Below, one piece after another: positions 6,024-7,286 of a stretch of DNA of 64,000 nt. Each line of letters begins with the position of its first letter. Within the stretch, counting starts at the first letter, position 1. A program made the position numbers and the translations under genes. The notes below the pieces were generated by a model. That model searched no databases. It was not told the DNA's origin and worked only from the letters and a program-made list of their open reading frames with translations. The DNA lies in the IMG/VR virus record IMGVR_UViG_3300045988_078724, positions 31,033-95,032 of that record; one strand, given 5' to 3'. Source of the stretch: a virus.

Positions 6024-7286
6024 TTATACGGAAATCCGTACCGGGTTCCACCAAAACCCTCTACCTTTTGGTAACATCGTTACATCAAAGGATTCTTTTT
6101 CCGATTTACGGATGATGTTAAAAGCACCATTGATATCAGCATTAATAATACTACCAGAAGAAGTTTTAAACAATCCTCGTTTAATCCTTCTTCCTTTGTA
6201 AGATTCATGTTTACAAATCCGTTCATTATCCAAAAAGCTACATTTTGAAGTATAAGATTCTTCAACGATCTTAACATTAATACCTTCTAATGTCGCTTTA
6301 TACGATACCATACTGATAAACATATTAAAAGGAATAGATACAAAGTTTTGATTATTTCGTTTTCCGATATTGATCTCTTGTTTCCAGCATTTGTTATGAC
6401 CGATTATGATCGTATTAATACCATTGGAAACTACGTGATTAATCAATATCCTACTTGCCTTATGAAGATAATCCTTGATCTTGTTATTTCTTTTGTTGGT
6501 TAATGACCTGATTTGTTTTGAAATTTGTTTGTTATCTTTTAACTTAGATTTTAAGTATGCTAATTTCTTATTATAATACTGGTTGATAGACTTCAGTGGT
6601 CTACCATTGATGATAAAACAAGAACCGGTGTTTGAAACACAAGAGGCTAAATTATCTAATCCTATGTCGATACCAAGGTAGTTTCCATTATCTGACATAA
6701 GATTCTTTTCCTTCTTATTGTAAACTATTTCAAGAACAATATACCCATTCTTAGGAATGAATCTAAGTTGTTGAATATTTTGTTTATTGGTTCTTGTCGT
6801 GAAAGAGAATTGCTTAGGTAACTTAACAACACCTTGTTTTATCCATTTTTGAGAAAAAGCTATGGTTGTAAAAACAGCAGGAAACAAACCATCTTTGTTA
6901 AGATACTTAGGTATTCTAACAAATTCGGAATACTCACCTCTATTCCTTTTATTTAGAAGATTGAAGAAAGATTTGAAGTTTCTATCAACCATCATCAACA
7001 CTTGTTGAGCAACAGGTGTTGGTAAAGCACGATAGTCAACATCATTTTCTGCTCTTAGTTTCTTTTCAAGAGAATAGTAGTTGAGATATTTGTACTTTAC
7101 AGTATTATCATCCTTGTATTGAAAATAGTGTTGTCTAACAACATACAATCCTTTATTGTATAAGTTTTTACACTTATGCAATAGGTCATAAAGTTCATTA
7201 TAATAAACAGAACTTGGCTTGATTGTATGTTGTTCGACTAATCTCATGACACAAATGTAGGAATTATTATCTATATATAAAAACAA
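6024..7286 (-). CDS. tnpB: TnpB-like RNA-guided nuclease (IS200/IS605 OrfB family), 420 aa
   Basis: C-terminal RuvC-III-like motif INADINGAFNIIRK, EESYTSK motif, GIDIGLDNLA RuvC-I-like motif; paralogous to ORF 17149..18339. Confidence 0.85.
   Translation of the reverse strand: MFLYIDNNSYICVMRLVEQHTIKPSSVYYNELYDLLHKCKNLYNKGLYVVRQHYFQYKDDNTVKYKYLNYYSLEKKLRAENDVDYRALPTPVAQQVLMMVDRNFKSFFNLLNKRNRGEYSEFVRIPKYLNKDGLFPAVFTTIAFSQKWIKQGVVKLPKQFSFTTRTNKQNIQQLRFIPKNGYIVLEIVYNKKEKNLMSDNGNYLGIDIGLDNLASCVSNTGSCFIINGRPLKSINQYYNKKLAYLKSKLKDNKQISKQIRSLTNKRNNKIKDYLHKASRILINHVVSNGINTIIIGHNKCWKQEINIGKRNNQNFVSIPFNMFISMVSYKATLEGINVKIVEESYTSKCSFLDNERICKHESYKGRRIKRGLFKTSSGSIINADINGAFNIIRKSEKESFDVTMLPKGRGFWWNPVRISV

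Follow-up and report, generated by a model that had tools for sequence, protein, structure and literature searches.

TnpB is usually treated as the partner of a Y1 transposase (in IS605) or a serine transposase (in IS607). Its partnerships with DDE transposases have been catalogued and, so far, little dissected: Altae-Tran et al. 2023 (PMC10691335) report DDE-associated TnpBs in branches DDE-1 to DDE-6, and describe the IS630-linked DDE-6 in the text. In the account given there, the TnpB lies within an inverted-repeat transposon with the 3' end of tnpB at most 250 bp from the transposon end, and solo TnpBs occur within ends that nearly match the ends of elements bearing a transposase, which implies that they are mobilised in trans. 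Fanzor1 and Fanzor2* nucleases sit in cut-and-paste transposons of eukaryotes and eukaryotic viruses, an example being the non-autonomous element of Spodoptera frugiperda ascovirus 1a that encodes Fanzor alone (Yoon et al. 2023, PMC10711439). Here we describe T1, our name for the 1,347-bp element that encodes TnpB-1 in a viral DNA stretch of 64,000 nucleotides (IMG/VR record IMGVR_UViG_3300045988_078724, positions 31,033 to 95,032; hereafter the window). With a probability of about 75%, we read T1 as a non-autonomous IS1595-family (DDE) transposon of epsilon crAss-like phages that carries an active-looking TnpB-omegaRNA module as cargo and is mobilised in trans. We hold the structural side of this reading with high confidence, and infer its functional steps. 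The parts of T1 on which the argument rests are as follows.

5978–7324, minus strand: T1, complete non-autonomous transposon, 1,347 bp (left repeat, 77-nt leader, tnpB and 46-nt right end)
7301–7324, minus strand: left terminal inverted repeat, 24 nt, GGTGATTATATACAACTTTACACC
5978–6001, minus strand: right terminal inverted repeat, reading GGTGATTATGTATTACTTTACACC on the plus strand
6024–7247, minus strand: tnpB, 407 aa, ATG at 7247 (MRLVEQH)
5978–6100, minus strand: omegaRNA-like structured region, covering the last ~25 tnpB codons and the right end
6064–6091, minus strand: hairpin 1 of the RNAalifold consensus
6043–6059, minus strand: hairpin 2 of the RNAalifold consensus
6026–6041, minus strand: hairpin 3 of the RNAalifold consensus
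5984–6022, minus strand: terminal hairpin, in which the right inverted repeat (3' arm) pairs with an internal complementary arm
5957–5977, minus strand: predicted guide of the window copy, T+AAAAATAACAATAATTTTCA, directly after the scaffold

T1 shares with the DDE-associated TnpBs both the position of tnpB near one transposon end and the near-identity of its ends to those of transposase-bearing elements. It differs from them, as far as that source describes them, in its IS1595 transposase (IS630 being the sole family named in the main text), in being strictly non-autonomous and confined to crAss-like phages, in belonging to a family that places three TnpB lineages and omegaRNA-bearing miniature transposable elements with inverted repeats (MITEs) on one repeat set, and in having its right repeat built into a terminal RNA hairpin. 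Like the ascovirus Fanzor element, T1 is virus-borne and non-autonomous, has inverted repeats and target duplications, and encodes a nuclease with an alternative RuvC-II Glu (PMC10711439). Unlike Fanzors, it is a bacteriophage element whose RuvC-I reads D-I-G rather than DPG, and direct ancestry is unsupported; its transposase partner is identified as IS1595, whereas that of the ascovirus element is unknown. DDE-linked TnpBs with inverted-repeat ends were thus already known, having been reported in 2023. What is new is the IS1595 partner, the strictly phage-borne, multi-lineage and MITE-rich family in crAss-like phages, and the evidence for a right repeat inside the omegaRNA together with a side-specific motif resembling a target-adjacent motif (TAM). 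A literature search for TnpB with IS1595 and with the phage name returned nothing mechanistic.

The DNA flanking T1 in the window matches csAssE-Sib at 96–98% identity. This epsilon crAss-like phage of the human gut (OR575929, 151 kb) has a description that mentions two TnpB-family 'transposases' and nothing more on TnpB (PMC11054128). A scan of IMG/VR found 443 relatives; the best 80, together with loci collected earlier, gave 44 distinct flank pairs (compared loci bear L-numbers, L001 being OR575929). More than 80 close copies of T1 lie in ~150-kb epsilon crAss-like phage contigs. Proteins 83–96% identical to TnpB-1 sit elsewhere on ~80–150-kb contigs, and T1 positions other than that in the window include the head-fibre region, the replication module and a site beside a homologue of TnpB-2, another TnpB of the window. 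Across 185,579 species, each represented by a single genome, the closest host relatives are 50–51% identical (metagenome-assembled genomes, MAGs, of Paludibacteraceae and Prevotella); because nothing closer than 51% identity was found there, the family appears to be phage-borne. With one exception, L170, no bacterial or archaeal relative showed convincing repeats. L170 (2922–4263, in a Paludibacteraceae MAG), the closest bacterial relative at 50% identity, is a single copy whose perfect inverted repeat of 13 bp, ATAAATCAGATAA, occupies positions comparable to those of the T1 repeats; no duplication is visible there.

Homology between copies at different sites starts exactly at GGTGATTATATAC... 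and stops exactly at ...ATAATCACC. These boundaries were set first from four sites and then from >80 copies, nearly all of which are 1,344–1,350 bp long. The two ends form an inverted repeat with 21/24 identical positions and the consensus GGTGATTAT[A/G]TA[CA/TT]ACTTTACACC; allowing at most 3 mismatches, the 24-mer has 3 occurrences in the window, where shuffles predict 0.00. The initial annotation had noted a related motif on the 5' side of tnpB, which is real and extends further than it was given (7301–7324, 24 nt, 21/24 to the right repeat). Outside the repeats, 19/44 flank pairs carry a perfect 8-bp duplication and 3 more match at 7/8; at the local base composition an 8/8 match is expected by chance at ~1e-4 per site. 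The insertions of L050 (TTCTAATT) and L013 (TTCTTTTA) are 6 bp apart, and each of these loci preserves the site of the other without interruption, which marks the 8-bp duplications as genuine target-site duplications.

Inverted repeats combined with 8-bp duplications point to a DDE transposase and not to IS200/IS605, to which the initial annotation had matched the ends: that family has neither terminal inverted repeats nor target duplication (PMC13565253, PMC7290912). An IS200/IS605 (IS1341-type) element that has tnpB only and subterminal hairpins, and that a Y1 TnpA acting in trans would mobilise as single-stranded DNA, would fit the TnpB cargo and the strong 3'-end hairpin. It would also fit a target motif, T-W-A-T, that resembles TTAT-like IS605 targets (common IS605 left-end target sites include TTAT; PMC9956272), and the sister TnpB-2 in the window looks classic IS1341-type. 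Indeed, IS1341-group elements share with T1 a length of ~1.3 kb, tnpB as sole gene and a 3'-end omegaRNA. They lack inverted repeats and target duplication, however, and insert directly 3' of a short motif, whereas T1 has both and the duplicated 7 nt separate its motif from its left end. The left end forms no hairpin (its fold is no better than shuffles, z = 0.2/-0.8), leaving a hairpin at the right end alone; the G-U pairs of that hairpin occur on one strand only; and identical repeats flank a DDE transposase. We regard such an origin as extremely improbable. No copy of T1 has space for a Y1 TnpA, and the transposase encoded by the larger elements that share its repeats is of the DDE type, a whole-window Y1 scan not having been made. 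That T1 is non-autonomous, one of two options offered by the initial annotation, agrees with its layout, since 1,224 of its 1,347 bp are tnpB and a second gene would not fit.

The candidate transposase emerged from a search of IMG/VR with the repeat itself. It returned repeat pairs that enclose 2.8–3.5 kb, and each pair encloses a 307-aa protein with a full-length match to DDE_Tnp_IS1595 (Pfam PF12762, 2.9e-42) as well as passenger genes, among them those for an outer-membrane-protein (OMP)-beta-barrel-like protein, a DUF5640 protein and a TRL-like lipoprotein. The T1 repeats are 24/24 and 23/24 identical to those of the transposase elements L246, L260 and L350, the left repeat being the one that matches at 24/24; in L246 the 307-aa protein is encoded at 4290–5213. 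A scan with the 307-aa transposase gave 237 loci; among the 80 of these that were listed, ~30 are elements of 2.4–5.5 kb bounded by T1-type repeats, and perfect 8-bp duplications are found at 6 transposase-encoding elements. In line with this, A/T-rich repeats of 8 bp are documented for a member of the IS1595 family (PMC12561309). T1 and the transposase occur together on at least four contigs (_104829, _090989, _075272 and _062721), and one contig carries three T1 copies. From this co-occurrence and the common repeats, mobilisation of T1 by the IS1595 transposase appears probable.

The same repeats bound other cargo. There are MITEs of 323–452 bp with perfect 8-bp duplications and no TnpB, 1,320-bp elements with an alternative-Glu TnpB that is 43% identical to TnpB-1, and 1,332-bp elements whose TnpB is of the canonical zinc-finger kind. 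TnpB modules have been captured or swapped repeatedly among these repeats. IS1595 insertion sequences, their relatives and their MITEs resemble T1 in having inverted repeats, A/T-rich 8-bp duplications, frequent passengers and short non-autonomous derivatives. By contrast, IS1595 passengers are metabolic, resistance or surface genes, and the phage-borne autonomous relatives of T1 carry lipoprotein or OMP-like cargo, whereas the passenger of T1 is an RNA-guided nuclease module. Loci of the other TnpB lineages within IS1595-type repeats include L312 (3059–4378), L322, L256 (8324–9655) and L015 (4442–5772); the canonical zinc-finger TnpB of L256 is frameshifted, and its duplication is CAAACTTA.

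The IS605-type TnpB open reading frame (ORF) of 420 aa on the minus strand that the initial annotation described exists, as judged by Pfam (OrfB_IS605 PF01385, 2e-22; Cas12f1-like_TNB PF07282, 4.4e-12; both exceed the curated cut-offs). Its TTG start over-extends it, however (6024–7286, minus strand); every relative begins at the ATG at 7247, which makes 407 aa the likelier length. A phmmer search with TnpB-1 found no match among PDB sequences; it took a profile of its family to reach solved TnpB and Cas12f chains, whose catalytic Asp residues align. In an alignment of 18 sequences, D194 (RuvC-I, IDIG), E330 and D371 (RuvC-III, NADIN) are invariant. The canonical RuvC-II Glu position is occupied by Gly283, and an alternative Glu (E329/E330) lies 6/5 residues ahead of the first Cys (ExxxxxxC). 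The catalytic triad of the RuvC motifs is therefore intact, though rearranged (D194, E329/E330, D371), so that by sequence the D-E-D set appears to be kept. This arrangement has precedent: a major TnpB clade combines Glu-to-Gly replacement with an alternative Glu and NADxN in RuvC-III (PMC10691335), and ExxxxxxC is the 'Ealt' arrangement of PMC10711439. The C4 zinc finger is degenerate, with two Cys left (SKCSFLDNERIC) and the second CxxC gone. Loss of the zinc finger is described for some large TnpB branches (PMC10691335), so that it does not exclude membership in TnpB. Pairwise ratios of nonsynonymous to synonymous substitution rates (dN/dS) of 0.03–0.13 between copies at different sites indicate strong purifying selection, not a relic. 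Together, TnpB-1 looks active.

Some relatives of TnpB-1 are mosaic. In the chimeric TnpBs P0048, P0049 and P0038 the N-terminal half resembles TnpB-2 or another lineage and the C-terminal half is near-identical to TnpB-1; P0038, at 507 aa, is TnpB-1-like and contains HNH domains, and in L005 an RRXRR/HNH gene lies near a T1 copy. In the left-end leader (7248–7290, minus strand), TACATTTG stands 4 bases ahead of the tnpB ATG and, by eye, is conserved across copies. Also by eye, it looks like the -7 promoter box of Bacteroides (TAnnTTTG), a hint that the host belongs to the Bacteroidota and that the mRNA is near-leaderless. A sigma-70 promoter scan showed no enrichment over shuffles.

At the opposite end of T1, the last 223 nt fold with a minimum free energy z of -6.4, and an alignment of 81 distinct 3' ends yields a four-hairpin RNAalifold consensus within the last ~115 nt. 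On this structure 97.8% of cells are paired, double-sided pair changes number 11 versus 4.9 +/- 1.4 in shuffles, and sliding the 3' partners by 1–3 columns lowers pairing to 38–56%. Five compensatory changes fall in the MITE lineage, in which the region is non-coding, and the 3' structured block is always kept in MITEs and internally deleted copies. The palindrome that the initial annotation placed 3' of tnpB is perfect over 15-nt arms rather than 14 (5984–5998 and 6008–6022), with a 9-nt loop; folded as single-stranded DNA, it reaches -13.4/-11.1 kcal/mol (z = -6.1/-6.2), and 0/200 shuffles are as stable. Many positions of the terminal hairpin form G-U pairs on the tnpB-sense strand (for example in 50, 33, 37, 45 and 28 of 81 copies), and each of these would be a C-A mismatch on the opposite strand; most copies have several such pairs in this hairpin. 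One-strand G-U pairing of this kind argues that the stem forms in RNA and does not serve a Y1 transposase as a DNA hairpin. Hence the covariation and the strand-specific G-U pairs make the earlier suggestion of an omegaRNA stem a plausible one, with the terminal hairpin plausibly forming the terminal stem of the predicted omegaRNA. Incorporation of a repeat into the guide-RNA scaffold was likewise suggested for the Fanzors of eukaryotic transposons that bear inverted repeats and duplications (PMC10711439). Searched with Rfam at gathering thresholds, the whole window gave zero family matches.

The same protein and RNA data bear on whether TnpB-1 might instead be an inert relic or a nuclease-dead domesticated regulator (TldR-like), with the hairpin acting as a terminator between convergent genes. 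The RuvC-II Glu-to-Gly change and the degenerate C4 zinc finger could be taken this way, and in the window the hairpin does lie between convergent ORFs. Yet Gly plus the alternative Glu marks a large, presumably active clade (PMC10711439, PMC10691335), and D194, E330 and D371 stay invariant under a dN/dS of 0.03–0.13. T1 also occupies dozens of insertion sites (44 flank pairs) without a fixed context, and its hairpin is conserved wherever it sits. As a terminator the hairpin fails on its own terms, since it has no T-tract and a consensus scan does not flag it. We consider such a relic or regulator very unlikely. The domestication proposed by the initial annotation as the second option is not supported either, given the dozens of sites, the kept residues and the dN/dS of 0.03–0.13.

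Upon comparison of 36 unique left flanks, we noticed the motif T-W-A-T at -11 to -8 (T 27, A/T 32, A 31, T 29). The duplication starts with the last T of this motif, so that the motif does not abut the left end; it lies 7 nt off, with the rest of the duplicated 8-mer between. At the right end, T is the first base beyond the element in 40/41 flanks, and the mirror positions at this edge are weakly biased (A 19/36, T 24/41). The distance and orientation of T-W-A-T are fixed in T1 and in the MITEs, whereas the six transposase-encoding elements with duplications show A|T at the duplication edge on either side. This suggests a weak, roughly symmetric A|T-N6-A|T preference of the transposase itself. 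Elements bearing TnpB may then be preferentially kept where TWAT precedes guide-matched sequence, because only there could TnpB cut the empty allele; with so small a comparator set, we treat retention as a hypothesis.

The fixed motif could also mean that TnpB takes part in transposition, either as the transposase or by a TAM recognition that steers IS1595 insertion beside TWAT in one orientation. TnpB is, after all, the sole protein that T1 encodes, and the fixed distance and orientation are not seen in the six transposase-encoding elements. Against such a role, a cognate DDE transposase with identical repeats exists, 8 bp is the IS1595 signature, and MITEs without TnpB transpose with the same duplications. 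TnpB and Cas12 moreover cut at sites distant from the TAM rather than adjacent to it, and selection after insertion accounts for the bias equally well. A part for TnpB in the transposition reaction is thus unlikely. A milder version, which we find doubtful, is that TWAT recognition by TnpB may bias where and which way the IS1595 transposase inserts or retains omegaRNA-bearing elements, MITEs served in trans included. If true, T1 would represent a natural minimal coupling of an RNA-guided nuclease and a DDE transposase in which each insertion gains a ready-made homing guide.

The copy in the window lies between two genes, one of which it has altered.

5625–5978, plus strand: truncated neighbour gene, 117 aa from the ATG at 5625
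7332–7335, minus strand: TAAT, the TAM-like target motif, 7 nt beyond the left end and 2 bp upstream of the ATG (7338) that opens the 752-aa gene

The flanks of this copy are mismatched (left TTAACTTT, right TAAAAATA) and a target duplication is absent; each flank has its own TAAT and 8-mer. We rebuilt the intact locus from L024, in which T1 sits elsewhere in the same small gene, by removing the element and one duplication. Window positions 5300–5977 and 7325–7500 align to the rebuilt locus at 96% and 94% identity, and the 191 bp of L024 between these blocks (57 codons and a spacer) are absent from the window. The small gene, 176 aa when intact in L024, stops in the window after ...NENYCYF, having lost 57 codons. 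Its TAG stop (5976–5978) takes TA from the flank and G from the outermost repeat base of T1. The initial annotation was thus right that the element reaches into this neighbour's 3' end, the stop straddling the element boundary; simple insertion does not describe the event, as 191 bp are missing relative to the intact allele. On the other side, the left end of T1 lies 13 bp upstream of the ATG of a 752-aa gene, and this left flank is common to L014 and L062, whose right flanks differ. The simplest history is two same-orientation insertions 191 bp apart followed by recombination; the alternative, an adjacent deletion, would likewise explain why the window copy has no duplication.

The predicted guide is antisense to the end of the truncated gene. 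In the intact L024 allele, TAAT is followed by the window's predicted guide sequence, AAAAATAACAATAATTTTCA; because the match begins directly after TAAT, the window copy is expected to target phages with the full-length gene. Comparison with an uninterrupted site, as the initial annotation envisaged, was informative here and uninformative in csAssE-Sib, which we rejected as an empty site because an unrelated 599-bp cassette (L001 4122–4720) replaces the segment 5638–7328. More generally, a variable cassette of unrelated small genes separates the 1,853-aa structural gene from the 752-aa gene: csAssE-Sib has a 192-aa ORF where this lineage has the 176-aa ORF, with the first ~7 codons alone in common, and neither protein matched Pfam or PHROGs.

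These observations suggest how T1 might move and persist. An IS1595 transposase made by a sister element, whether this resides in the same phage or in a co-infecting one, would bind the repeats in trans, move T1 and duplicate 8 bp. From the left-end leader tnpB would be transcribed, and the 3' part of the transcript with ~16–20 nt of flanking DNA would become the omegaRNA. TnpB and omegaRNA would then cut phage genomes with an uninterrupted site (TWAT, the 8-mer and the downstream sequence), and recombination with an occupied genome would copy T1 in, as homing or as marker exclusion at co-infection. The occupied site would be immune: on the left ~7 nt of guide match would remain, and on the right the TAM-like motif would be replaced by the element end. 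T1 probably spreads within phage populations by RNA-guided homing. In this proposed role it would resemble the homing endonuclease genes of T-even phages, selfish nucleases that cut the allele lacking them at co-infection and are copied by recombination. Unlike those, its target would be RNA-guided and reset at each insertion, and it would spread to new sites via a DDE transposase.

Several points weigh against reading T1 as a trans-mobilised IS1595-family element with a working TnpB-omegaRNA module. About 20 of the 44 flank pairs have no duplication. Copies of this kind typically have one flank in common with other copies, not both, which is the pattern expected of recombination between copies; recombination would explain the missing duplications, though this is not proven. 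Only four T1-bearing contigs also show the transposase, with 80 of its 237 matches listed, and the window itself holds just a remnant of a transposase-type element. Helices 1–3 lie inside coding sequence, so the protein accounts for part of their conservation. The TAM and the guide start are themselves predictions from the sequence. Finally, the left-side motif bias rests on 6 comparators and could stem from the transposase together with asymmetric ends.

In crAss-like phages of the human gut, T1 provides a natural system that is both compact and abundant, with dozens of datable sites that each have an empty allele for comparison. It shows a guide-RNA scaffold absorbing a transposase-binding repeat, as proposed for eukaryotic Fanzors, and suggests that RNA-guided homing could work as a gene drive among co-infecting phages. 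The family also explains local genome variation in these phages, such as truncated genes, swapped cassettes and inter-copy deletions. For phage genes like tnpB-1, the annotation 'IS200/IS605 family transposase' is misleading.

The window contains further members of these families.

51537–51863, plus strand: MITE-like member of the repeat family, 327 bp, structured RNA kept and tnpB absent
57557–58021, plus strand: right-end remnant of a transposase-type IS1595 transposon, 465 bp, repeat at 57998–58021
17149–18339, plus strand: TnpB-2, same subfamily as TnpB-1, 46% identical
54193–55368, plus strand: TnpB-3, canonical, with IFIEDL RuvC-II and a CxxC...CxxC zinc finger

Over 468 bp the remnant shares 97% identity with the end of the L299 element, and it retains a 114-aa cargo ORF (57563–57907, minus strand). 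The transposase part is absent, so this phage once carried an autonomous element; tblastn found no IS1595 transposase within the window. Neither TnpB-2 nor TnpB-3 has the T1 repeats when tested for them, and TnpB-2 also lacks a duplication. The left end of TnpB-2 is abutted by (G/T)AT(G/A) and its right end finishes ...TTTTAATAAC(A/G)T(G/T), features by which we assign it to classic IS1341-type elements; relatives of TnpB-2 occur at many sites in IMG/VR contigs. TnpB-3 is 25–38% identical to the canonical TnpB inside the IS1595 repeats of L256.

The 327-bp MITE has a degenerate left repeat, an intact right end and a four-hairpin RNA with compensatory changes, and relatives of 323–332 bp carry perfect 8-bp duplications. 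It may supply an extra guide RNA for TnpB in trans. Directly past it, at 51865–51897, the 13-nt motif TTAGTTCCTAAAA occurs twice, 20 nt apart.

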